Sequence record: ON528736
Direction: 5' to 3' (one strand)
DNA: 64,000 nucleotides
Source: Shigella phage ESh26
This document shows, in pieces, positions 4,809-59,724 of the stretch. The notes under the pieces are model-generated. The model searched no databases, was not told the origin of the DNA, and saw only the letters and a program-made list of their open reading frames with translations. Position 1 is the stretch's first letter; the number at the start of each line of letters is the position of its first letter. The position numbers were made by a program, and so were the translations under genes.

Positions 4809-5014
4809 TACAAAAAGCCTCTCTTGAATTCGACTTGCTTTTCGCCATAATCATATCGAATCTCTGCATTAAATTCGACAGAACCATCTGCGTACATCAT
4901 AAATGAATGCACAACAACTTCTGTAGACCATGGCTGCAGTTCATATTTTTTCATTACATGCCGTGAAATGATAATATCTAAATCTTCATTTGGTTTAATC
5001 CAGCGATTTAACAT
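4808..5014 (-). CDS. hypothetical protein
   Basis: 68-aa ORF downstream of promoter 5041-5070. Confidence 0.4.
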   Translation of the reverse strand: MLNRWIKPNEDLDIIISRHVMKKYELQPWSTEVVVHSFMMYADGSVEFNAEIRYDYGEKQVEFKRGFL

Positions 5015-5040
5015 AGTGCTCTCCTCTATAAGATAATTCT

Positions 5041-5070
5041 ATTATACCATACTCATTTTGGAAAGTAAAC
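5041..5070 (-). promoter_or_regulatory. early promoter
   Basis: gtaaac 5065-5070, attata 5041-5046, 18-nt spacer. Confidence 0.55.
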
Positions 5071-5080
5071 CGGTAAAATG

Positions 5081-5104
5081 AAAAAAGGACTCCCGAAGGA
5101 GTCC
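5081..5104 (-). terminator. intrinsic terminator after soc
   Basis: Hairpin ggactcc-cgaa-ggagtcc; U-run on minus strand. Confidence 0.7.
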
Positions 5105-5110
5105 TTGAAT

Positions 5111-5356
5111 TTATTCACCAGTTACTTTCCACAAATCTTCGTTTGCAGTAATCCATTCAGTACGTTGATTTTCTTCATATACTGTAGAATATGCTGCTTT
5201 TTCTGAAGGGAATGTCTGGTAATGAGCGCCAGAAATTTTGTGAACGTCAGAATAAAGAGGGAAAGCTACAGAAATTTCCTTTCCTTCAATTTTCTTATTT
5301 CCATCTAATTTTTGCTCAAATGTTTTAATATTAACATAACCGCGAGTACTAGCCAT
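5111..5356 (-). CDS. soc: small outer capsid protein Soc
   Basis: 81-aa ORF MASTRGYVNIKTFEQKLDGNKK... matches remembered T4 Soc; late promoter upstream, terminator downstream. Confidence 0.9.
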   Translation of the reverse strand: MASTRGYVNIKTFEQKLDGNKKIEGKEISVAFPLYSDVHKISGAHYQTFPSEKAAYSTVYEENQRTEWITANEDLWKVTGE

Positions 5357-5372
5357 GTAATTCTCCTTTTAT

Positions 5373-5582
5373 TTAAATTACATGACTATTTATAATAAAT
5401 TCTTGCGGAACGTTAAAATACCCAATTTTAGTTAATATAACAACATCACCGTTAATAATTACCGGAGAATAATCGGCTGGAGCATTAAACTTCCAATGGG
5501 CTCTAATATTATATCCATCAGAACCAAATGCTCGACTAGCCGGTCTCCCGGCTTTTTGCCATGCATAAAAATCAAATTTCAT
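5373..5582 (-). CDS. hypothetical protein (soc.1 position)
   Basis: 69-aa ORF. Confidence 0.45.
   Translation of the reverse strand: MKFDFYAWQKAGRPASRAFGSDGYNIRAHWKFNAPADYSPVIINGDVVILTKIGYFNVPQEFIINSHVI
5387..5394 (-). promoter_or_regulatory. late promoter TATAAATA for soc
   Basis: Plus-strand tatttata about 30 nt upstream of soc start. Confidence 0.65.
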
Positions 5583-5782
5583 TTTGAATGCTCTACAATT
5601 AATTTTAAGGCTTCTTCATGCACACACTTACCTAATGGTATATGTCCAGTTTTAATTGTGTAAGCTTTGTGGAGCTGATTAGATAAGAGCTCGTATGTGA
5701 GCTCCTTGTCATAATTTTTAAATAGCTGGTCAATACGTTTCTTGTGGGCTTTCTTAAGCTGACGTTTATTTAAACGAGCCAT
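5579..5782 (-). CDS. hypothetical protein (soc.2 position)
   Basis: 67-aa basic ORF. Confidence 0.45.
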   Translation of the reverse strand: MARLNKRQLKKAHKKRIDQLFKNYDKELTYELLSNQLHKAYTIKTGHIPLGKCVHEEALKLIVEHSK

Positions 5783-6300
5783 TAATAACCTCGGTCTTGA
5801 CGAGCGAAGTTTTCAGCATTTTTCAGATAATAAAGTTTAAAGATTTCTTCAGCCGTAAGACCGAGACCTTGGAACATGTTCAGAACGAAATGAAGAATAT
5901 CAATCATTTCGAATTTAATTTCCAACTGGTCTTGTGGAGACAAATCAGTAATTAAAGTTTCACGACGTTCACCATGCTGTGACTTCCAAGGTTTCCATAC
6001 AGCAGATGCATCTTTTTCGCCATTGCTCATACCACCAAGAGAAGTCAGAAGTTCGCGGAATTCATCATCAATATAATCTTTCTGATTACGCAGCCAATCA
6101 ACAACTTCGCCTGCAGTAGCCAAATCATCAGGATGACGGTTATATTCAGGTTTATCTTTAGCTAAACGAACCTGCAGAGATTTCTGCATATCAAGCATAA
6201 CTTGCAGCGGGTCTTTTTCATCACCGAGAATATCCCAGTATTCATTTTGAGCTTTATCAGCGCCTTCAATCAGTTGTGAACATTCGTTAAAGTATGCCAT
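5782..6300 (-). CDS. 56: dCTPase/dUTPase gp56 (MazG-like)
   Basis: Start chosen at internal MAYFNECSQ (172 aa, T4 gp56 size) rather than the 203-aa ORF start. Confidence 0.75.
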   Translation of the reverse strand: MAYFNECSQLIEGADKAQNEYWDILGDEKDPLQVMLDMQKSLQVRLAKDKPEYNRHPDDLATAGEVVDWLRNQKDYIDDEFRELLTSLGGMSNGEKDASAVWKPWKSQHGERRETLITDLSPQDQLEIKFEMIDILHFVLNMFQGLGLTAEEIFKLYYLKNAENFARQDRGY

Positions 6301-6371
6301 TATTTTTCCTTTCAATTCATGGGTTAGTAGATTAATTATACAATAAATATATAAAGCAATAAGGAGGACAT

Positions 6372-6572
6372 ATGGTACAAAAATTAATGGCACTTGTTAA
6401 TGCCATAAAAGGTAATAAAAAACGTATAGCTTTTACTATTTCTGCTATGGTAGGAATTTTACTCTGGAATTTTGTTTTATCACCAATTGCTATTGCTCAT
6501 GGTGTTAATATTCCAGTAATTACTCTTGATACATTCGTAGATTTAGCATTTGCTTTGGTTGGGTTAATTTAA
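6372..6572 (+). CDS. small hydrophobic membrane protein
   Basis: 66-aa plus-strand ORF in the 56-61 gap, AGGAGG 7 nt before ATG, two hydrophobic segments. Confidence 0.5.
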   Translation: MVQKLMALVNAIKGNKKRIAFTISAMVGILLWNFVLSPIAIAHGVNIPVITLDTFVDLAFALVGLI

Positions 6573-7597
6573 ATCTTAGCGTATTTAGATAGCCGCATTT
6601 TAGCCATCAACCCTTGGGCAATATTATTTTTCATATATTCCATAATTTGTTTAGGGGTTGCACCTTCCTTTCTAATCATATCATTAACATCCTTTGATTT
6701 CCAGGGAGATTTATCCCAAAACATAACCCTTTCTCCTGCATCAACTAATTTAGTCATTCGTTTAATAGTGTCAGGGTGACGAGGTTCATTATCTAAAACC
6801 CACACACGTCTATCTTTAAATGGAACAATTTCTAGGTCTAATTGACCACCCGTAATAGCTATACCATTTTCAATAAAAAGTGAATCTATAGGTCCTTCTA
6901 GAACATATACATCACCATCTTTGACTCGTTCAACTCCATAGATTTTTGTTGCCTCAGGATAAGCTTTGATGGTGATATATTTTTGAGGAGCATCTTTCTT
7001 TAATGCACGTCCTTGAAAAGACTCGGCTTTTCCGTTAGCATTATAAATTGGAATAACAAGACGAGGCTCGGGCATTTCCTTTTTATATGTTCCTGGCGCT
7101 ATACTATTAACTAATTTAGGCCATTCGGTTGTAAACCAAAGATATTTCCATTTATCCTTTGGAATACAACGAGCTTTTACATATTTTATAATTGGATGGT
7201 CTTCCGCCAGTTTATCTAGTCTAATGCATGACGGAAGAGATTTAATTATTTTCTTCTCAGGTTGTTTAGAAAGTTCTTTAGGTTTTTCTACTGGACGACT
7301 TTTACCTTTTTCTTTTCTTATTTCAAAGATATACTCACGATATAAATCAGGTTCAAACTCCTTTAAATATATTCCGATTGGTGCATGATAGTTACAGTTA
7401 TAACAATGAATATTTCCTTCATTATTATCGCCATAATACCATCCACGGGCTTTATTTTGATCGGTTTTTGAATCTCCACAAACAGGACATCTAAACCGTA
7501 ATTTAAAAGTTGAACTATTATTTACTTGTGCGAATTTAGGTAAATGAGCTAATGCACGGTATGCAAACTCATTATCAATCCAAGGTATTGATGACAT
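6569..7597 (-). CDS. 61: DNA primase gp61
   Basis: 342 aa; zinc ribbon CPVCGDSK...HCYNCNYH; position before gene 41. Confidence 0.9.
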   Translation of the reverse strand: MSSIPWIDNEFAYRALAHLPKFAQVNNSSTFKLRFRCPVCGDSKTDQNKARGWYYGDNNEGNIHCYNCNYHAPIGIYLKEFEPDLYREYIFEIRKEKGKSRPVEKPKELSKQPEKKIIKSLPSCIRLDKLAEDHPIIKYVKARCIPKDKWKYLWFTTEWPKLVNSIAPGTYKKEMPEPRLVIPIYNANGKAESFQGRALKKDAPQKYITIKAYPEATKIYGVERVKDGDVYVLEGPIDSLFIENGIAITGGQLDLEIVPFKDRRVWVLDNEPRHPDTIKRMTKLVDAGERVMFWDKSPWKSKDVNDMIRKEGATPKQIMEYMKNNIAQGLMAKMRLSKYAKI

Positions 7598-7599
7598 TT

Positions 7600-7764
7600 T
7601 TACTCTTCTTTTTCTTTAGATTCCTCTTTTTTCTTTTTAGGAATCTGTTCAGGACCTTTATTTACTACAGCGCCTGACGTTGTTCCAGTGGAGATATTTT
7701 CAGGATTACCACCTGAATCTCCAGCTACCATATCTTCTTTGATAAATTCTTTATATGTTTTCAT
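7600..7764 (-). CDS. small lysine-rich protein with CTS-like N-terminus
   Basis: 54-aa ORF below table cutoff: MKTYKEFIKEDMVAGDSGGNPENISTGTTSGAVVNKGPEQIPKKKKEESKEKEE. Confidence 0.4.
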   Translation of the reverse strand: MKTYKEFIKEDMVAGDSGGNPENISTGTTSGAVVNKGPEQIPKKKKEESKEKEE

Positions 7765-7765
7765 A

Positions 7766-8392
7766 TTAACCTCTATTCATAAAAGCATTAAAAATTTGGT
7801 CATCAATAGAAACATTTACTTTAGACTGTTTTTCTGATAGTAATTCATATCCACATATTACAATTTTGTGATCAATATCAAAATGCACAGAAGCAATATG
7901 ATTAATGATGTTTTCAGTAAAGTCTAAATCAACATCAATATCTTTTTGACCACAGCCCAAAGGATAAATAATGCGAGTAATTCGATTATCTTTAACAAAG
8001 ATTCCACCGACATACTCTGTGCTGCGTTTAAAGTCTACACGCCGACGAAATGAAAAATATTCAGGCTCTTTATGAGCTCGGCTCATAGGACACAACGAGT
8101 AACTAGAATAAGAGATGTCAAATCCTACGCCTTCAATATGAGCCAAAGTATTACGATTAAACCAATTATAATCGTACGCCAAATCCATTAGATTATAATA
8201 TGTAAAAGGCACCGGATTAACATCATTAGTCACAAGCACGTAATTAGCAATTGCTATAATTTCATTGTTTTTAACGAATACAAACCGTGATTGATGGGAA
8301 TGACCTGGACCCGCGTTTTCACGATTAATGATATAACACTGGGCACCTTTATATTTGTATGTATCTTTGCACTTGTGCATTTGATAGAGCAT
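7766..8392 (-). CDS. hypothetical protein (61.2 position)
   Basis: 208-aa ORF, translationally coupled to sp. Confidence 0.5.
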   Translation of the reverse strand: MLYQMHKCKDTYKYKGAQCYIINRENAGPGHSHQSRFVFVKNNEIIAIANYVLVTNDVNPVPFTYYNLMDLAYDYNWFNRNTLAHIEGVGFDISYSSYSLCPMSRAHKEPEYFSFRRRVDFKRSTEYVGGIFVKDNRITRIIYPLGCGQKDIDVDLDFTENIINHIASVHFDIDHKIVICGYELLSEKQSKVNVSIDDQIFNAFMNRG

Positions 8393-9246: not shown

Positions 9247-10673
9247 TAAAATTTTAATTCATTTGCCAAAGCATCTAACTGAGCTCGAGCGGATTCGTTT
9301 CTTTGATAGCGATTCTGTTCAGCCTGAATCTGCTGTGAACCTGCTACTTCGTTCACTTCGGTTGGAGTAGAATCTTGCTCAATTTCTACCCATTTCTGAT
9401 TTCCTTTTTGAACACCCATCAAAAACTTATTCCATTTATTCTTATCACCGTATCGTGATTTGATTTGCTTAATGAGTTGTTGTTCAGCAGCTGCTAGCTC
9501 CTCGGTTTCAATGACCGCAAGCATAAAATCAGCTGTTGCTGGAAGACCGGCAGATTCTGCAATATCGCTCATGTTAACATCAGAAGAGTCCCAAGCTTGC
9601 TTACCAACCTGTGCTGCAGTCCAAAGAACAGTTTCGGTTTCAACAGCCAGAGCACGCAATTCCTCTGCGATAGCTTTAACAGTCGTGTAACTATTTTCTG
9701 AATAAACTCTGATGCGGCAAGATTTACAAATACCCAGATAGTCAACAATAATGATTGTTGGAACAAAATTCTTCTTGAGCTTTAATTCATTTAAAAGCGA
9801 CCGAAATGTATTAGCGTCTGCTCCACCAGTAGGATATTGCTTAACGATTAAACGACCGAGAGTAGATTTCTCACGCCATTTTTCCATTTTTCCTTTATAC
9901 TCAGCGTAAGAAATATGCCCATCATCAATGTCATCAAGGGAAACATCAAGCATATTAGCATCAATACGTTTAGCACAAACTTCTTCTGCCATTTCCATGG
10001 AAATGTAAAGAACATTGTGTCCGAGCTGCAAATAATCTGCTGCCAATGAACACAATCCTAATGACTTGCCAACGTTAACACCGGCCATTAAAACGTTCAG
10101 TGTTCCAGTTTCAGCTCCGCCTTTAGTAATTTTATTTAGAATTTTGAGTTTAAATGGAACCTTACGAGCTTTATTCATATAAGATAGCCAACGTGCTTCG
10201 TAGTCATCCATCCAATCATGACCAACGTAACTATCAAATGAAATTGATAATGCTTGGCGCATGATGTCAGGAATAGCACCAACATCCGGCATTTTCTTAT
10301 TTCGTTTTTCTGGAGGAAGCTCAGCATTAGTTTGAATTTCAATTATTTTAGACGTAGCATTAAACATCGCCCTTTGCTGAACATATTTTTCTGTTTCTTT
10401 TACTAACCAGCTGTGGTCTTCTGGAGAATCGGCTAGTTTCGAAATAAGTGTTTTTACACCAGAATATTCTGTTTCAGTAAATGAACTATTTTCTAATGCA
10501 ACATTTAACGCATTAATAGATGGAACGCTATGGTATTCATTAACATGAGATTTAATTAATTTGAATGTATTTTTAGCTGGACCACTTTCAAAATATTCTG
10601 AATCCATATATGGCCAAACTTTTGAAAAATAAGCTTGATCAAATATGAGATGAGAAAGAATAATTTCTACCAC
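9246..10673 (-). CDS. 41: replicative DNA helicase gp41
   Basis: 475 aa; Walker A GVNVGKS; matches remembered T4 gp41 along whole length. Confidence 0.95.
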   Translation of the reverse strand: MVEIILSHLIFDQAYFSKVWPYMDSEYFESGPAKNTFKLIKSHVNEYHSVPSINALNVALENSSFTETEYSGVKTLISKLADSPEDHSWLVKETEKYVQQRAMFNATSKIIEIQTNAELPPEKRNKKMPDVGAIPDIMRQALSISFDSYVGHDWMDDYEARWLSYMNKARKVPFKLKILNKITKGGAETGTLNVLMAGVNVGKSLGLCSLAADYLQLGHNVLYISMEMAEEVCAKRIDANMLDVSLDDIDDGHISYAEYKGKMEKWREKSTLGRLIVKQYPTGGADANTFRSLLNELKLKKNFVPTIIIVDYLGICKSCRIRVYSENSYTTVKAIAEELRALAVETETVLWTAAQVGKQAWDSSDVNMSDIAESAGLPATADFMLAVIETEELAAAEQQLIKQIKSRYGDKNKWNKFLMGVQKGNQKWVEIEQDSTPTEVNEVAGSQQIQAEQNRYQRNESARAQLDALANELKF

Positions 10674-10682
10674 ACTTACTCC

Positions 10683-11045
10683 TTAAAAGAATTTAAATTT
10701 TTTCTTTGACCTTTTATTAAATGCATCTTGTAGTTGCATTGTAATACATTTTTCTACATGAGGAGCTAACTCAGCTTTTCTTTCTTGGTCAAGAACAGCA
10801 AAGTCCATTACGACTTTTCCATCAACCCAATCTAATTTTGTCACATACACAATGTGTGTAGAACCGTCTTCTAGTTTAATGACAATCTCCTGGATAACAT
10901 TTTCCATGGCAGATTTAATTATCTTAAGAGATTCATTAAAAAGACGTTCTTTTCTTTCTTCTTCCCCCTCCGAAGAGGGGGATTCATCGATAATTTCTAG
11001 ATCTAAATCTAAATCATCTTTATTCATTAAATTCTTCCATATCAC
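10683..11045 (-). CDS. 40: head assembly factor gp40
   Basis: 120-aa ORF between uvsX and 41. Confidence 0.65.
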   Translation of the reverse strand: MIWKNLMNKDDLDLDLEIIDESPSSEGEEERKERLFNESLKIIKSAMENVIQEIVIKLEDGSTHIVYVTKLDWVDGKVVMDFAVLDQERKAELAPHVEKCITMQLQDAFNKRSKKKFKFF

Positions 11046-40007: not shown

Positions 40008-40322
40008 CTAAAAGAAACTTCTTTCACAATTTTTTCCACTGAACCAGGCGCTCACTGCTTTCTTAGTCTCAGGAGCAGTGTTATCCATAAACCATTCAAA
40101 GGCAGCCTTTTTATGATTCTGGAGGGCTTCTCGGGCTTTAATCTGCTCACGGTCTATTAACACTAACATATGAGCCTTTCTTGACACCATGGGCTTCTTA
40201 TGATTTTTTGAATACTCCCAGTCATTTGTCCATCGCATTGTCGTTGCGAACTGAAATACTGCTTCTTTAATTTTAGTTTCGTAAATTTCACGAGCCTTTG
40301 AGTATAACATCATTACCTCCAT
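40008..40322 (-). CDS. hypothetical protein
   Basis: 104-aa ORF. Confidence 0.45.
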   Translation of the reverse strand: MEVMMLYSKAREIYETKIKEAVFQFATTMRWTNDWEYSKNHKKPMVSRKAHMLVLIDREQIKAREALQNHKKAAFEWFMDNTAPETKKAVSAWFSGKNCERSFF

Positions 40323-40411
40323 TCACCAGTTTAATTCTAGTCATCTTTTTAATGGCAGTCCATATAATCTATTTCTGAACTGCCTTTTTGTCATAGAAGT
40401 CCTCTTATGAA

Positions 40412-41380
40412 TTATTTCAGAAGAGTAACCTCAGCGATTTCTTCCCAACCGTTTTTGTCGGTCATAATAAAGTCAGCAAGATAAAGAGCAGTACGCAGTG
40501 AAACATTGCGTAAACGGTTAACATTAACTTTCATCCATGATAATGCTTTATAAGTTTCTTCATCAGAAAGACCGCGCTTTTGCATCATGTCAGTTGAAAG
40601 AATAACATCTTCAACCCTGACCATAATTTCTTCATTAGTGTGAACACCCAAATCTAAATAAACCGAGCGGGACACTAATGCTTGTAAATGTGGAGCAAGT
40701 TTAGTACCACGGTCTAATTCGCGGTCAATGTCAACGTTTGTGATAAAAACAATCGTTCCTTTAAATTCAAACTCACGCTCAATGCCTTTTTCTTCTAAGT
40801 AAGAAGACGCAGTGCTCCAGCAGACTTTACGGGTCTCTCCAGTGTCCAGAGCGGCTTTTAGAAGATTAAGAATGTCCATATCAGAGAAAACATCCACATC
40901 GTCAATCAAAAGGACAGAATTCTCTTCACGATTATTCCAAAGCTGCTCATAAAGACCAATACCAGAGATTTTACCATTAATGCTTTTATATTCAATGTAT
41001 CCAATATCATTTGCTTTATTTAAAGCTTTATCTAAAGAATACGTTTTACCAATACCTGCTGCTCCTGAGATAATTAATGAACGAATATTTCCGTTAATAA
41101 TACCATTCGTCATCATTCCCATAACATTAAATCTTTTATTAATGCGGGTTTTCATATCTTCATACGATTCTTTAACTTCTTCAACTTTTACACCATCATA
41201 TGAAATATCTGATTTGTAAACCCAAACACCGCGACGTTTACCGTCAATTTCAACAAAAACTTTACCATCTCCTTGCGCATCTACCGGAGCATTATCTGGG
41301 AACCATTCGCCTAAGAGCTCAAAAGTTCCAGAGATTTCTTTACCGAAGTAGATACCCTTATTGATAGTTACAGTTTTCAT
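40412..41380 (-). CDS. AAA+ family ATPase
   Basis: Walker A GAAGIGKT, Walker B VLLIDDVDV, sensor-1-like FITN; start at MKTVTINKG after conserved promoter-RBS cassette. Confidence 0.6.
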   Translation of the reverse strand: MKTVTINKGIYFGKEISGTFELLGEWFPDNAPVDAQGDGKVFVEIDGKRRGVWVYKSDISYDGVKVEEVKESYEDMKTRINKRFNVMGMMTNGIINGNIRSLIISGAAGIGKTYSLDKALNKANDIGYIEYKSINGKISGIGLYEQLWNNREENSVLLIDDVDVFSDMDILNLLKAALDTGETRKVCWSTASSYLEEKGIEREFEFKGTIVFITNVDIDRELDRGTKLAPHLQALVSRSVYLDLGVHTNEEIMVRVEDVILSTDMMQKRGLSDEETYKALSWMKVNVNRLRNVSLRTALYLADFIMTDKNGWEEIAEVTLLK

Positions 41381-41412
41381 TTTATTCTCCAAATCCGTAT
41401 CAGTTGATAGTT

Positions 41413-41446
41413 GTATAGTACCATAAAGCTTTATGCTTGTAAACTG
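41413..41446 (-). promoter_or_regulatory. early promoter, cassette copy upstream of AAA ATPase
   Basis: gtaaac 41439-41444, atagta 41415-41420. Confidence 0.6.
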
Positions 41447-41474
41447 TTCTGTGAAAAAATTTTGAAATAAAAAA

Positions 41475-41493
41475 GGGAGCCCGAAGGCTCCCT
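41475..41493 (-). terminator. intrinsic terminator after nucleotidyltransferase gene
   Basis: gggagcc-cgaa-ggctccc preceded by a-run on plus strand. Confidence 0.65.
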
Positions 41494-41494
41494 A

Positions 41495-42508
41495 TCATTT
41501 ATAATAACTTCGGTGGTTTTCAAGATAAACCCTCTCAAGGAAGTCATCCCAGAAACCCATATCTACTTTTTGCTGCATACCGTTCTTAGAAGCTTCAATG
41601 GATGCTGCTTCTACTTGATCGACCACATCTTCCAAAAACTCTTGAACAGTTTTAAATGGATGTTTACCCAACTTCACGTCGAGAATAAATGGAGCGTCTT
41701 GAAGTGGATAGACTAAGTCACCAGTTTTGTAAATTTCCAATAGTTGGAGTCCACCACGACAAGCATGACTCAGAGCTTTCCAGTCAATGCCCTCATTCGC
41801 TTCAGCCTTACGAGCACGTTCGCCGTATTCAGCATCAAGTTTATTCAAAGATTGCTTAAGCTCGATAAGAGAAAGCGTTGTCTGATATTTACGACCCAAC
41901 ACAGTGTAGAACGTTTGTGGACCTGTTTTCTCATGATTATGGAATACCCATTCACAGAATTCGTTTTCTGGAAGACGATGCTTAATATCTTCTACCTTAG
42001 TTCGACGTTGCTTAATAGAACCATCTTCTTGATAATCAACCCATTGCTCAGGGATTTGATTAACTACTTTCAATACATCACGTAATGCGGCCAAACGAGA
42101 ACCCTTAACACCGTATTTAGAAGCTTGCTTGCGAACATATCCTAAATAGGATTTCATGTTAGTTGTATAAAAACGAGAACGATTGTCTTGAATAAACTTC
42201 CATACATCAGGCAAATCAGATTTAACTACCAGTTCAGGTGGAGTATGGAGCATATCCAATGCTACAGTTTCACCATCTGCTGCTAATTTAAAGAAATATT
42301 TAAGACTGTATAGTTCATGGTCAATATCATCTTTAGTGTTTTTAGATGATGTGTTGTTAGTGTTTTTACTCATATGCTCTTTAACATTTCCGATAAGAAT
42401 ATCACGAGCAGGAGGAACAAAGATTTCTTTAAAATCTACATCAGATTCTGGAGTAGAAGTTCCATAAAGATGACTACCAAAATAGCTTTTCATTACTGTT
42501 TTCATCAT
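41495..42508 (-). CDS. Pol-beta-superfamily nucleotidyltransferase
   Basis: 337 aa; N-terminal GSHLYGTSTPESDVDF motif (hG[GS]...DhD); terminator hairpin immediately downstream. Confidence 0.55.
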   Translation of the reverse strand: MMKTVMKSYFGSHLYGTSTPESDVDFKEIFVPPARDILIGNVKEHMSKNTNNTSSKNTKDDIDHELYSLKYFFKLAADGETVALDMLHTPPELVVKSDLPDVWKFIQDNRSRFYTTNMKSYLGYVRKQASKYGVKGSRLAALRDVLKVVNQIPEQWVDYQEDGSIKQRRTKVEDIKHRLPENEFCEWVFHNHEKTGPQTFYTVLGRKYQTTLSLIELKQSLNKLDAEYGERARKAEANEGIDWKALSHACRGGLQLLEIYKTGDLVYPLQDAPFILDVKLGKHPFKTVQEFLEDVVDQVEAASIEASKNGMQQKVDMGFWDDFLERVYLENHRSYYK

Positions 42509-42978
42509 TCAGCCTTATATTCAATAACAGGACATACTTTAGCTTTACGTGCTTTTAAAAATTCGACGATAATAGATTTCTTGGGTTGAATAGGAGGTAA
42601 ACCTTTATACGCTCTATCAATATTTTCTACATGTAAAGCATAATCCTTTTTCCATTTATAATCTTTATATTTTTCATGCAGTTGTGCAGGAATAACAAAT
42701 GAACCAATAATAAGTAAAACAAGCAAAATGGCAAGTATAAATGCTGATGGAATAAGAGTCCATAAACTACCAAAAATAAGCCATTTCTGTATGATTTCTG
42801 CGCAGATAATAGTTAGACCTGCGAGCATAGTACATCCGAATAAAGAAACGAAAAATGTAGGGATAACAATAGACCAAAAATACGCGCACAGTGTCTTAGG
42901 TCGTTTCCATTCGTCGTTAAACATTTTGAATAATTTATAATGCCAAGAGTTTTCATTAATAACCATAATTATAATCAT
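42505..42978 (-). CDS. membrane protein
   Basis: 157 aa, three hydrophobic segments. Confidence 0.5.
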   Translation of the reverse strand: MIIIMVINENSWHYKLFKMFNDEWKRPKTLCAYFWSIVIPTFFVSLFGCTMLAGLTIICAEIIQKWLIFGSLWTLIPSAFILAILLVLLIIGSFVIPAQLHEKYKDYKWKKDYALHVENIDRAYKGLPPIQPKKSIIVEFLKARKAKVCPVIEYKAE

Positions 42979-43496
42979 CCTTTCATTGAAGGTGTAACAG
43001 TTGTTAAATACTTAATCATAGCTTCAGCTTCTGATTTTGATAATGAAATTTCTCCATTGTTTTGACGAATAGAAATAAAATCCGGATGACGGTCACCACC
43101 AGCTTTTAAAATACACATATAAGTATCAGTTTCATCTTCAATATCTGAAATAATTGAAGCAGTTCCACATGAATGTGGTTTTTGATAAATCAATGCAGCT
43201 TTTCTTCCACCGTTTGACTGTTCATAAACTTTTAACACATCAAACAAATCGCTTCTTTTATCAATAGCTAAGATGTTGTTTTCATCTTCAATGTTAAATC
43301 CTTCGGATACTTCATAAAGTGTCACCCATAAATCACCAATATCAATAACAGCGTTCACCTTTCCATGATTTTCAAGCGTATGACAAATTTTCTTAATTTC
43401 ATCATAACTCATTTTAATAATATCATCTCCTTGAATAAGAAAGATGTCATTTTTAAATTCAACACGAATTAAACCACTTCCACTTGAAATAAACAT
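42975..43496 (-). CDS. hypothetical protein, tandem paralog A
   Basis: 173 aa; C-terminus SKSEAEAMIKYLTTVTPSMKG resembles next gene. Confidence 0.5.
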   Translation of the reverse strand: MFISSGSGLIRVEFKNDIFLIQGDDIIKMSYDEIKKICHTLENHGKVNAVIDIGDLWVTLYEVSEGFNIEDENNILAIDKRSDLFDVLKVYEQSNGGRKAALIYQKPHSCGTASIISDIEDETDTYMCILKAGGDRHPDFISIRQNNGEISLSKSEAEAMIKYLTTVTPSMKG

Positions 43497-43502
43497 ATTT
43501 CC

Positions 43503-44069
43503 TCACTTTGAAATCATAGTTGGAATGACAGAATCAAGATAAGTCTTTAGCGCAATAGCTTCGTCTTTAGTAAATGTAACAATATGCGATCGAAAATCGT
43601 CAATTTGACGAATAGTTAAGACATCTCCATCTTCATAGCATTTTGACACATTTAAAACAGTTTCATCATTTTGATCGCACTGATCGCAAGCGTTAGTAAT
43701 AATAGCATTGCAATTTTTGAGCCATTTTAAACTATGTTTTCTTTCATTAGAATAATAAAAATATTTAATGTAAGTTATAAAATTATCCCAATTATTAATT
43801 GATAAACACATTGACTCACTTTTAATATTAAATCCTGGGCATGAAGAATAAAAATGAATTTTGTGCTCATCATTGATGCTTACTATTTTATCAGTATAAG
43901 GATATTCAATTTGGGTTAAATGAATGATTTCACTAGGCATAAAATACAGCATATCGTCTTCTTGTGTCAAACGATACATGTTATTTACTTTTTCTATAGC
44001 CAATTCGCCAAAAAGCGGACTAACTTCTAATACTAATCGTTTCATATTGATTCTCTTCGACTCACTCAC
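43503..44069 (-). CDS. hypothetical protein, tandem paralog B (Cys-rich)
   Basis: 188 aa; C-terminus TKDEAIALKTYLDSVIPTMISK; promoter 44205-44234. Confidence 0.5.
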   Translation of the reverse strand: MSESKRINMKRLVLEVSPLFGELAIEKVNNMYRLTQEDDMLYFMPSEIIHLTQIEYPYTDKIVSINDEHKIHFYSSCPGFNIKSESMCLSINNWDNFITYIKYFYYSNERKHSLKWLKNCNAIITNACDQCDQNDETVLNVSKCYEDGDVLTIRQIDDFRSHIVTFTKDEAIALKTYLDSVIPTMISK

Positions 44070-58703: not shown

Positions 58704-58779
58704 TGGTCGAGGCAGTAGGGATCGAACCTACGACCTAGGACTTAGAAGGTCCTTGCTCTTCCTTCTGAGCTATGCCCCG
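58704..58779 (-). tRNA. tRNA-Arg (anticodon TCT)
   Basis: Manual cloverleaf: acceptor CGGGGCA/TGCCTCG, loop CTTCTAA, T-loop TTCGATC, encoded CCA. Confidence 0.85.
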
Positions 58780-58783
58780 TAAT

Positions 58784-58859
58784 TGGGGTGACCGATGGGG
58801 GTCGAACCCATGACTACGAGAATCACAATCTCGAGTTCTACCAACTGAACTACGGCCAC
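58784..58859 (-). tRNA. tRNA-His (anticodon GTG)
   Basis: Manual cloverleaf: acceptor GTGGCCG/CGGTCAC, loop TTGTGAT, discriminator C, encoded CCA; no G at -1. Confidence 0.75.
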
Positions 58860-58972
58860 ATTAATACCTACTCCAACAATCAAGATGTCTTCACACGAAA
58901 TTAAGAGAAGAGTGATCAGTTCAACCCTATAATCGCGTCAAGTAGATATTAATGTGACAGTTGTCACAAATT

Positions 58973-59047
58973 TGGCGGACGTGATAGGATTCGAACCTAT
59001 AACCAATCGCTTAACAGGCGATCGCTCTGCCATTGAGCTACACATCC
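58973..59047 (-). tRNA. tRNA-Asn (anticodon GTT)
   Basis: Manual cloverleaf: acceptor GGATGTG/CACGTCC, loop CTGTTAA, T-loop TTCGAAT, encoded CCA. Confidence 0.8.
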
Positions 59048-59051
59048 AAAT

Positions 59052-59138
59052 TGGTGGGGAGTGATGGAGTCGAACCACCCGAGTCGCAATGACAATGGAT
59101 TTACAGTCCACACCGCTACCTCTACGGGATAACTCCCC
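59052..59138 (-). tRNA. tRNA-Tyr (anticodon GTA), long variable arm
   Basis: 87 nt; acceptor GGGGAGT/ACTCCCC, loop CTGTAAA, T-loop TTCGACT, encoded CCA. Confidence 0.75.
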
Positions 59139-59151
59139 TTAATTCTTAATT

Positions 59152-59226
59152 TGGTGGCCCTGGGTGGAATTGAACCACCATCTGGCGATTATGAGTCGCT
59201 TGCTTGAACCTTCCAGCTACAGGGCC
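59152..59226 (-). tRNA. tRNA with anticodon CAT (Ile-lysidine type as in T4, or Met)
   Basis: Acceptor GGCCCTG/CAGGGCC, loop CTCATAA, T-loop TTCAATT, encoded CCA; position after tRNA-Thr. Confidence 0.75.
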
Positions 59227-59227
59227 T

Positions 59228-59303
59228 TGGTGCTGATTGACGGAATCGAACCGCCGACCTTCTCATTACAAGTGAGTTGCTCTACCTACTGAGCTAAATC
59301 AGC
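59228..59303 (-). tRNA. tRNA-Thr (anticodon TGT)
   Basis: GCTGATTTAGCTCAGTAGGTAGAGC...CTTGTAA...GGTTCGATTCC...CAATCAGCACCA. Confidence 0.9.
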
Positions 59304-59308
59304 AAAAC

Positions 59309-59398
59309 TGGCGGAGGCGATAGGATTTGAACCTATGAGTCGCCGGAGCGACTGCCGGTTTTCAAGACCGGTGCATTAAACCACTCTGCCACGCCTCC
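59309..59398 (-). tRNA. tRNA-Ser (anticodon TGA), long variable arm
   Basis: 90 nt; GGAGGCGTGGCAGAGTGG...CTTGAAA...GGTTCAAATCC...CGCCTCCGCCA. Confidence 0.9.
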
Positions 59399-59400
59399 AG

Positions 59401-59474
59401 TCTCCATACAAGGATTTGAACCTTGGACCTCCTGATCCCAAATCAGGCGCTCTACCAAACTGAGCTACACGGAG
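59401..59474 (-). tRNA. tRNA-Pro (anticodon TGG), CCA not encoded
   Basis: CTCCGTGTAGCTCAGTTTGGTAGAGC...TTTGGGA...GGTTCAAATCC; 2 nt from tRNA-Ser (dimeric precursor as in T4). Confidence 0.88.
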
Positions 59475-59484
59475 TAAATTAAAT

Positions 59485-59558
<74 letters not shown>

Positions 59559-59563
59559 AAATT

Positions 59564-59650
59564 TGGTGCGAGAAGTGGGACTCGAACCCACAAGGAAATC
59601 ATTCCGCAGCATTTTAAGTGCTGTGCCTTTACCAATTTGGCCATTCTCGC
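59564..59650 (-). tRNA. tRNA-Leu (anticodon TAA), long variable arm
   Basis: 87 nt; GCGAGAATGGCCAAATTGGTAAAGGC...CTTAAAA...GGGTTCGAGTCCC...CGCACCA. Confidence 0.9.
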
Positions 59651-59651
59651 G

Positions 59652-59724
59652 CTGGGAATAAAGGACTCGAACCTTTGCATCCTGGAATCAAAATCCAGTG
59701 CCTTACCAACTTGGCTAATTCCCA
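59652..59724 (-). tRNA. tRNA-Gln (anticodon TTG), CCA not fully encoded
   Basis: TGGGAATTAGCCAAGTTGG...TTTTGAT...GGTTCGAGTCC...ATTCCCAG; abuts tRNA-Leu. Confidence 0.88.

Follow-up and report, generated by a model that had tools for sequence, protein, structure and literature searches.

The nrdC.11 gene of Shigella phage ESh26 encodes an RlaP-family nucleotidyltransferase of a long type with a proposed role in phage tRNA repair

What does a nucleotidyltransferase (NTase) encoded among small accessory phage genes act on? The question is raised by an open reading frame (ORF) of Shigella phage ESh26 located at positions 41495-42508, minus strand, of the window, i.e., the whole stretch of 64,000 nucleotides from sequence record ON528736 that was analysed. 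The first-pass annotation of this stretch, made from the letters alone, had reported a 337-amino-acid (aa) ORF at this place without giving a strand, had assigned it to the DNA polymerase beta (Pol-beta) superfamily of NTases, and had left open whether it is the ortholog of a T4 gene. The ORF is present, and its product is a Pol-beta-fold NTase of the RlaP family (PF10127) with an intact active site. By sequence and gene order it is the ortholog of nrdC.11 of phage T4, an already catalogued gene. NrdC.11 belongs to a distinct 'long' subfamily of RlaP, a split that is new here. The protein is proposed to be an RNA 3'-end nucleotidyltransferase that would serve the healing and sealing of phage tRNA, a reading to which a probability of roughly 0.55 is given.

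The N-terminus of the 337-aa protein, MMKTVMKSYFGSHLYGTSTPESDVDF, contains the catalytic signature G11-S12-x10-D23-V24-D25 (42434-42478, minus strand), and the superfamily signature read at first pass stands. The protein matches the Pfam family RlaP ('RNA repair pathway DNA polymerase beta family') with 43.8 bits (cut-off 23, E=3.3e-11), above the gathering threshold, over residues 7-135 and model positions 23-142 of 249. It also matches PHROG 388 ('nucleotidyltransferase') over its full length with 457 bits. In an alignment of 66 relatives with 35-54% identity (A1) the residues G11, S12, D23, D25, N57, D63, Y132, R231, K244, H248, R251, P268 and K279 are invariant. D63 (codon at 42320-42322, minus strand) is likely to be the third catalytic carboxylate, judged from its invariance and from its place in the structural model, where a beta strand (62-68) begins at this residue. 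A second alignment (A2) was made of canonical RlaPs, the tandem partners from the bacterial loci described below. Comparison of the NrdC.11 type with canonical RlaP by hhalign is significant only over residues 2-91 (probability 93.6%, E=2e-7) and sets the G-S, D23, D25 and D63 of NrdC.11 against G-S, D49, D51 and D88, which are invariant in canonical RlaP. No other protein of the window matches the long or the canonical RlaP profile. NCBIfam and PADLOC gave no match for nrdC.11, for the downstream gene nrdC.10 or for the membrane-protein gene upstream, and Pfam gave no AbiEii, CD-NTase/SMODS or CCA-enzyme (PolyA_pol) match for NrdC.11. The families first suggested for the ORF (AbiEii/MenT-like toxins, cyclic-oligonucleotide synthases, minimal NTases) were matched neither in Pfam nor in PADLOC and were not among the best fold matches; RlaP takes their place.

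The fold, for which structure prediction had been named as a check, was modelled with AlphaFold2 on the 66-sequence alignment A1. The model has a predicted local distance difference test score (pLDDT) of 93.9 and a predicted template modelling score of 0.81, and places the motif in an NTase fold. The N-terminal Pol-beta NTase core comprises approximately residues 1-115 (42164-42508, minus strand), in agreement with the Pfam and hhalign ranges, and is an alpha/beta structure with strands 3-10, 24-31, 45-49 and 62-68 and a G-S helix at 12-15. A long helix (119-151) lies between the core and a beta subdomain formed by residues 155-209 (41882-42046, minus strand; pLDDT mostly >90). The C-terminal helical domain, residues 214-336 (41501-41869, minus strand), includes the motif DWKALSHACR (41756-41785) and the invariant basic residues R231, K244, H248, R251 and K279. 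PDB sequence and profile searches with NrdC.11 gave nothing significant and no close solved structure. Foldseek against BFVD produced full-length alignments of low template modelling score with viral NTases, including those of the jumbo phages Klebsiella Eowyn and Pseudomonas PaBG, whose genomes are also matched by a canonical RlaP query.

The window protein shares 98.8% aa identity with NrdC.11 of T4T across residues 1-337 and 99% identity with the T2 cluster representative P0001; a 751-sequence cluster (90% identity) contains both the window protein and the T2 protein. The DNA of positions 40300-43100 is 97-98% identical to that of many T4-like phages, and by its sequence the source phage is a Tequatrovirus. 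The gene order nrdC ... nrdC.8-.9-.10-.11 / (mobD) / mobD.1 ... rI / tk is common to the window, ime09 and T4T, which confirms the nrdC-rI accessory region named in the first-pass annotation and places nrdC.11 between nrdC.10 and the mobD.1 / rI block, as annotated in ime09 and T4T. Because of this identity and the same synteny the ORF is assigned to T4 nrdC.11, and the question of T4 orthology is settled in the affirmative. The window phage differs from T4 in the gene upstream, which encodes a protein with two hydrophobic segments (2-TM) where T4 has mobD, and in a possible start one methionine earlier: the 337 aa are counted from the first ATG in the ORF list, the 336 aa of the T4 and ime09 annotations from the second. 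The T4 protein (38.9 kDa) is labelled 'nucleotidyltransferase' in RefSeq, and nrdC.11 orthologs were matched to COG3541 by Nolan et al. 2006 (PMC1524935). Many deposited T4-like genomes label the orthologs of nrdC.11 and nrdC.10 as 'thioredoxin', and one deposited record labels the nrdC.11 ortholog as 'putative HNH homing endonuclease'; these labels look like carry-over from the nrdC name prefix or from the neighbouring mobD.

The long type is set apart from canonical RlaP by length and by the extent of its match to the family model. The long-type proteins tested (312-351 aa) score about 50 bits against Pfam RlaP (about 44-53 bits with NrdC.11 included), in the N-terminal half only, whereas the canonical RlaPs tested (~255-290 aa) score 175-268 bits over their full length; NrdC.11 exceeds the canonical length by 60-80 residues. 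Canonical Pseudomonas RlaP and NrdC.11 share the Pol-beta core (G-S, DxD, third Asp), a domain plan in which a helical domain follows the NTase domain, and association with RNA-repair operons. The canonical RlaPs compared here, those of the bacterial loci, align with NrdC.11 over residues 2-91 only, and NrdC.11 has the beta subdomain 155-209, before which both the Pfam and the hhalign alignments with canonical RlaP end. In a published sequence similarity network T4 NrdC.11, there named an RlaP 'of unknown function', falls into cluster 5 and the Pseudomonas enzymes into cluster 1a (10.64898/2025.12.29.696909).

The evidence that bears most directly on function comes from bacterial relatives of the long type. 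One genome per prokaryotic species was scanned, and 80 loci (numbered with the prefix L) with relatives at 30-54% identity were kept, the bacterial members of the long subfamily standing at 30-41%. At the bacterial loci ORFs were called, all neighbours were clustered, and recurrent clusters were identified by Pfam. Pnkp, Hen1, RtcB, RtcA or Ro60/TROVE is encoded within 6 kb of the long-type homolog in 17 of the 80 loci, and the 'RNA-ligase-associated' property therefore holds for the bacterial members of NrdC.11's own long subfamily, which is new here. RtcB was found in nine loci, bacterial Pnkp (kinase + phosphatase + ligase domains) in seven, usually at position -1, Hen1 and Ro60/TROVE in six each, and RtcA in two. 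By rough inference this frequency would be tens of times the chance expectation, because a genome of several megabases holds no more than one copy of such a cassette. The families recurring in at least four loci are the RNA-repair genes and canonical RlaP, besides an ABC transporter (six loci, position inconsistent), a short-chain dehydrogenase (four loci) and one unassigned family (four loci). The arrangement Hen1-Pnkp-NTase is found in L049, L060 and L073, and Ro60-RtcB-RtcA-long NTase-RlaP-Hen1 in L038 (Nitrosospira). Genes for a MoxR-type AAA_5 ATPase and for a DUF2201 VWA/metallopeptidase-like protein extend the cassette of L038 (9201-12060). A T4-type Pnkp (HAD_PNKP + AAA_33) is encoded near the homolog in two loci, L073 (905-1849) and L009. 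In three loci, one of them viral and two bacterial (L162, 5447-5995; L017, 6909-7541; L076), the homolog directly adjoins a gene for an HD-domain phosphohydrolase. Both the HD-domain phosphohydrolase and the T4-type Pnkp could be further partners in end healing.

A second NTase gene directly follows the long type at +1 on the same strand in 20 of 70 loci. The +1 NTases tested with Pfam are canonical RlaPs. Pairs of long and canonical type were recorded in L010, L012, L020, L025, L026, L038, L046, L047, L049, L053, L059, L060, L062, L065, L066, L074, L082 and L085, most of them near 6000-7800 of the locus. The main text of the 2025 RlaP preprint (10.64898/2025.12.29.696909) does not mention this tandem pairing. 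In the loci with coordinates inspected, the start of the canonical gene often overlaps or abuts the stop of the long-type gene. Both members of the pairs retain the catalytic residues.

In T4, the repair of PrrC-cut tRNA by Pnkp and Rnl1 is the textbook case of viral repair of RNA damage inflicted by host immunity. Rnl1 and Rnl2 require 3'-OH and 5'-phosphate ends, and the classical healing and sealing pathway needs no nucleotide addition. RloC excises the wobble nucleotide, and the original proposal was that this excision hinders the repair of tRNA by phages (PMC2610378). RlaP takes its name from its linkage to RNA ligase genes, and phage RlaPs have been predicted to put back, ahead of ligation, the nucleotides that nucleases of the RloC type remove (PMC7824862). 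Biochemical data come from an un-reviewed preprint of December 2025, in which two Pseudomonas RlaPs (P. fluorescens, P. aeruginosa) add one or two nucleoside monophosphates (NMP) to RNA 3'-OH ends, prefer Mn2+, show little specificity for the nucleoside triphosphate (NTP) and label neither DNA nor protein (10.64898/2025.12.29.696909). The Pseudomonas enzymes favour the 5' half of a cleaved-tRNA mimic, i.e., the 3' end at the break site over the acceptor-end strand, and partly rescue aminoacylation of a tRNA lacking one anticodon-loop nucleotide; their 3'-OH product suits 5'-phosphate ligases of the T4 Rnl1/Rnl2 type (10.64898/2025.12.29.696909). RlaP also labels many cellular RNAs, among them rRNA-sized species and full-length tRNAs (10.64898/2025.12.29.696909).

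The proposed role of NrdC.11 joins these data to the T4 pathway that counters PrrC, in which the 3'-OH made by Pnkp is an end open to extension by an RlaP. A host anticodon nuclease would first cut the tRNA, and some such nucleases also remove a nucleotide (RloC: the wobble base). T4 Pnkp would turn the 2',3'-cyclic phosphate into a 3'-OH and phosphorylate the 5' end. Using NTP, and with D23, D25 and D63 binding two metal ions, NrdC.11 would add one or two untemplated nucleotides to the 3'-OH. Rnl1 or Rnl2 would then seal the tRNA, and a fraction of the molecules would regain a full-length anticodon loop. The NMP-addition chemistry in this scheme is borrowed from the distant Pseudomonas relatives of the preprint, and we infer that NrdC.11 may share the activity of Pseudomonas RlaP and act with Pnkp and Rnl1 against nucleotide-excising ribotoxins. 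The present analysis contributes the identity of the gene as nrdC.11, its family, its intact catalytic residues, its fold and the association of its subfamily with bacterial RNA-repair genes. If NrdC.11 restores nucleotides, T4-like phages would meet RloC-type nucleases with three enzymes, and a function would be found for a conserved gene of T4. The idea of nucleotide restoration is already published as a prediction (PMC7824862; 10.64898/2025.12.29.696909), and gene and family were already known. The value of the analysis is mainly practical: the T4-type enzyme is set apart from the characterised Pseudomonas enzymes, and its own subfamily is tied to RNA-repair cassettes.

The gene is present in 1,564 records of phages, most of which are Straboviridae, and NrdC.11 matches 3,421 clusters of the representative library at an E of 1e-3 or better. 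The record counts of NrdC.11 and of T4 Rnl1 nearly agree by genus (Escherichia 641/639, Klebsiella 286/287, Shigella 82/82, Aeromonas 75/77, Acinetobacter 69/69, Enterobacter 56/56), an agreement that is confounded by shared descent within Straboviridae. The distribution of Pnkp records is somewhat broader. Outside Straboviridae, Sinorhizobium phage phiM12 (L003) carries a homolog (4995-6020) between two ligase genes, an Rnl2-like gene (645-1709) about 3.3 kb upstream and an Rnl1-like gene (10515-10948) about 4.5 kb downstream. This placement and the counts by genus would both be in keeping with a connection to RNA repair. Canonical RlaP was found in 80 phage records, nearly all from jumbo phages of Pseudomonas, Caulobacter, Brevundimonas and Burkholderia, none of the genera listed being a typical host of Straboviridae. 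Among T4-like phages, mainly Straboviridae, the long type dominates. Phage neighbourhoods were considered as a clue to function and set aside as uninformative, as they vary (UvrD-like helicase, primase-helicase, DNA polymerase A, NadV, Band-7, HD domain).

The confounding of the record counts is one of several points that weigh against a role in tRNA healing and sealing, of which the divergent C-terminal half and the bacterial pairing of long and canonical types are the main grounds for caution. Long and canonical RlaPs gave no match to each other in BLASTP, the link being seen only by profile-profile comparison, and at the level of sequence homology to canonical RlaP is demonstrable only for the N-terminal ~90-135 residues. 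Because the substrate-binding C-terminal half differs and carries the extra beta subdomain, substrate and product could differ from those of the Pseudomonas enzymes. The frequent occurrence of the two types side by side in bacteria argues that they are not simply redundant. The authors of the preprint remark that restoration of the correct nucleotide would be inefficient (10.64898/2025.12.29.696909), and this source of the biochemistry is un-reviewed and concerns distant family members. Phage copies of nrdC.11 do not stand next to pseT or rnlA and have variable neighbours; in T4 the gene lies about 80 kb from the healing and sealing genes. T4 from which nrdC.11-mobD.3 has been deleted still grows on laboratory hosts (PMC9825161), which offers no positive phenotype, though it fits an accessory role. 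As the first-pass annotation had held, no function is established: a literature search found no experiment on the NrdC.11 protein itself.

Some of these points lead to an alternative that stays close to RNA repair. Because bacteria keep long and canonical types as tandem pairs, because a beta subdomain of its own and a C-terminal half that cannot be aligned mark the long type, and because T4-like phages carry the long type only, long RlaP may be more than a second version of canonical RlaP and could catalyse a distinct, undescribed step. This step might be to put back, selectively, the nucleotide that RloC-type anticodon nucleases take out, in which case long RlaP would be the third enzyme so far missing from the classical T4 tRNA repair pathway; alternatively, its primer or its product might be unlike that of canonical RlaP. 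Such a separate step is considered rather unlikely.

The remaining alternatives to the proposed function in healing and sealing are taken in order of decreasing probability. NrdC.11 might complete or repair tRNA 3' CCA ends by adding the terminal one or two nucleotides to trimmed or non-encoded ends of phage or host tRNAs. This is unlikely, although the family chemistry (one or two nucleotides onto any RNA 3'-OH, with labelling of full-length tRNAs as well; 10.64898/2025.12.29.696909) would allow it and two of the 11 tRNA genes of the window, Pro and Gln, do not encode CCA. Apart from the missing PolyA_pol match, CCA-adding enzymes are not among the listed fold matches, a marginal match to Cid1 being the only one of this kind (Foldseek probability 0.07-0.09). 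The low NTP specificity of canonical RlaP suits CCA synthesis poorly, the preference of the Pseudomonas enzyme for the break-site 3' end points away from the acceptor end, and the bacterial context consists of healing and sealing enzymes, not of tRNA maturation genes. Moreover, the CCA job is normally done by the host Cca enzyme. The suggestion made at first pass that the protein could act on tRNA 3' ends was close in spirit, but by the family evidence the target would be the 3' end of a tRNA half left by a break and not, as with a toxin, the CCA end.

Tailing of host or phage mRNA or small-RNA 3' ends, for regulation or decay during host takeover, appears quite unlikely. The broad labelling of cellular RNAs by RlaP, rRNA-sized species included, would be in keeping with it, as would the position of the gene in the nrdC-rI block of small accessory genes with a terminator of its own. 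Yet the reported tails are only one or two nucleotides long, the bacterial association is with ligases, Pnkp/Hen1, RtcB and Ro60, i.e., with repair and quality control and not with the degradosome, and no conserved decay-related partner stands beside the gene in the loci examined.

The idea that NrdC.11 modifies a host factor or metabolite by nucleotidylylation of a protein or small molecule, as kanamycin or lincosamide NTases and MNT-type AMPylating enzymes do, is improbable. The model does resemble kanamycin nucleotidyltransferase ANT(4') in combining an NTase domain with a helical bundle of the HEPN/KNTase_C type. Identity to ANT(4') and related NTases is only 7-10%, however, with Foldseek E values of about 5e-3 or worse, and the substrate of ANT(4') is a small molecule. 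Canonical RlaP labelled no protein or DNA, and the Pfam assignment is to RlaP and to no ANT or MNT family.

A role in counter-defence by making or mimicking a nucleotide signal, either as a CD-NTase-like cyclase or as an oligodeoxyadenylate synthase like HalB, holding a channel of the Hailong type shut, is very improbable. The apparent translational coupling of the gene to a membrane-protein gene in the window recalls HalA-HalB superficially, but T4 has mobD in place of the membrane-protein gene, and membrane genes are not recurrent beside the bacterial homologs. HalB is a protein of 217 aa that synthesises poly-dA primed from its own tyrosine and works with the HalA channel (PMC13434031). It shares 16% identity with NrdC.11, beside which no HalA-like partner is conserved, and sequence searches and genomic context show no link between the two. 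Action on nucleotide immune signals, raised at first pass, found nothing in its support, with no match to CD-NTase/SMODS or any other defence NTase in Pfam or PADLOC. An AbiEii/MenT-like toxin that blocks tRNA charging by nucleotide addition at the acceptor end is extremely improbable: it has only the superfamily motif and a similar size in its favour and against it the lack of an AbiEii match in Pfam and PADLOC, the absence of MenT and AbiEii structures from the listed fold matches of the model, neighbours (a membrane protein and a P-loop NTPase) that include no antitoxin-like partner, and conservation of the gene in ~1,500 lytic phage genomes.

Around nrdC.11 the window agrees with the first-pass annotation, which had noted a strong terminator after the ORF and a membrane protein and an AAA ATPase on its two sides. 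The intrinsic terminator (41464-41493, minus strand) begins 2 nucleotides (nt) past the nrdC.11 stop codon and has the sequence AGGGAGCC-UUCG-GGCUCCCU followed by UUUUUUAUUUC, i.e., an 8-bp stem with six G-C pairs, a UUCG loop and a U-run. It closes the transcription unit; its fold has an energy of -17.3 kcal/mol (z = -3.85), equalled by 0 of 200 shuffles. On the other side, an ATGA stop/start overlap (42505-42508, minus strand, from the ORF list) joins nrdC.11 to the gene of the 157-aa 2-TM protein (42505-42978, minus strand), which is RB69ORF104c-like and matches PHROG 944 ('membrane protein'). The overlap suggests that the two genes are co-transcribed and translationally coupled. The membrane-protein gene is no obligate partner of nrdC.11, because T4 has the HNH homing endonuclease gene mobD in its place (L005, 4241-5020); the junction between mobD.1 and nrdC.11 is evidently a variable insertion site. 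The membrane protein was also considered as a HalA-like partner, and this was rejected on the grounds given above for HalB.

Downstream of the terminator lies nrdC.10 (40412-41392, minus strand), which encodes a 326-aa P-loop/AAA-like NTPase of PHROG 1250 (function unknown). Its Pfam matches to AAA_14, AAA_22 and nSTAND are sub-threshold only. In Tevenvirinae-like and Acinetobacter T4-like genomes nrdC.10 is found within about three genes downstream of nrdC.11; Aeromonas phage 31, Vibrio phage nt-1 and most relatives below ~60% identity lack it at the locus. An obligate partnership with nrdC.10 was rejected, as the gene is missing in distant relatives and the terminator separates the two genes, and the pairing is treated as synteny, not as a system.

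Upstream of the membrane-protein gene lie the adjacent paralogs mobD.1 (42975-43496) and mobD.1a (43503-44069), both on the minus strand and both matching Pfam T4_y05I_N and T4_y05I_C ('putative transcription factor'). Stop-to-start overlaps join mobD.1, the membrane-protein gene and nrdC.11, and mobD.1a ends 6 nt upstream of mobD.1. Because of these overlaps and the 6-nt gap, the four genes probably form one transcription unit. A candidate promoter, TTTACA-17-TATAGT, is located at 44233-44205.

Further along the window, a cluster of 11 tRNA genes occupies 58704-59724 on the minus strand (Arg, His, Asn, Tyr, Met/Ile(CAT), Thr, Ser, Pro, Gly, Leu, Gln), two of which, for Pro and Gln, are those without encoded CCA. 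T4 has eight tRNA genes, and the extras of the window relative to T4 are His, Asn and Tyr, which read codons of tRNAs targeted by anticodon nucleases of the colicin E5 type.

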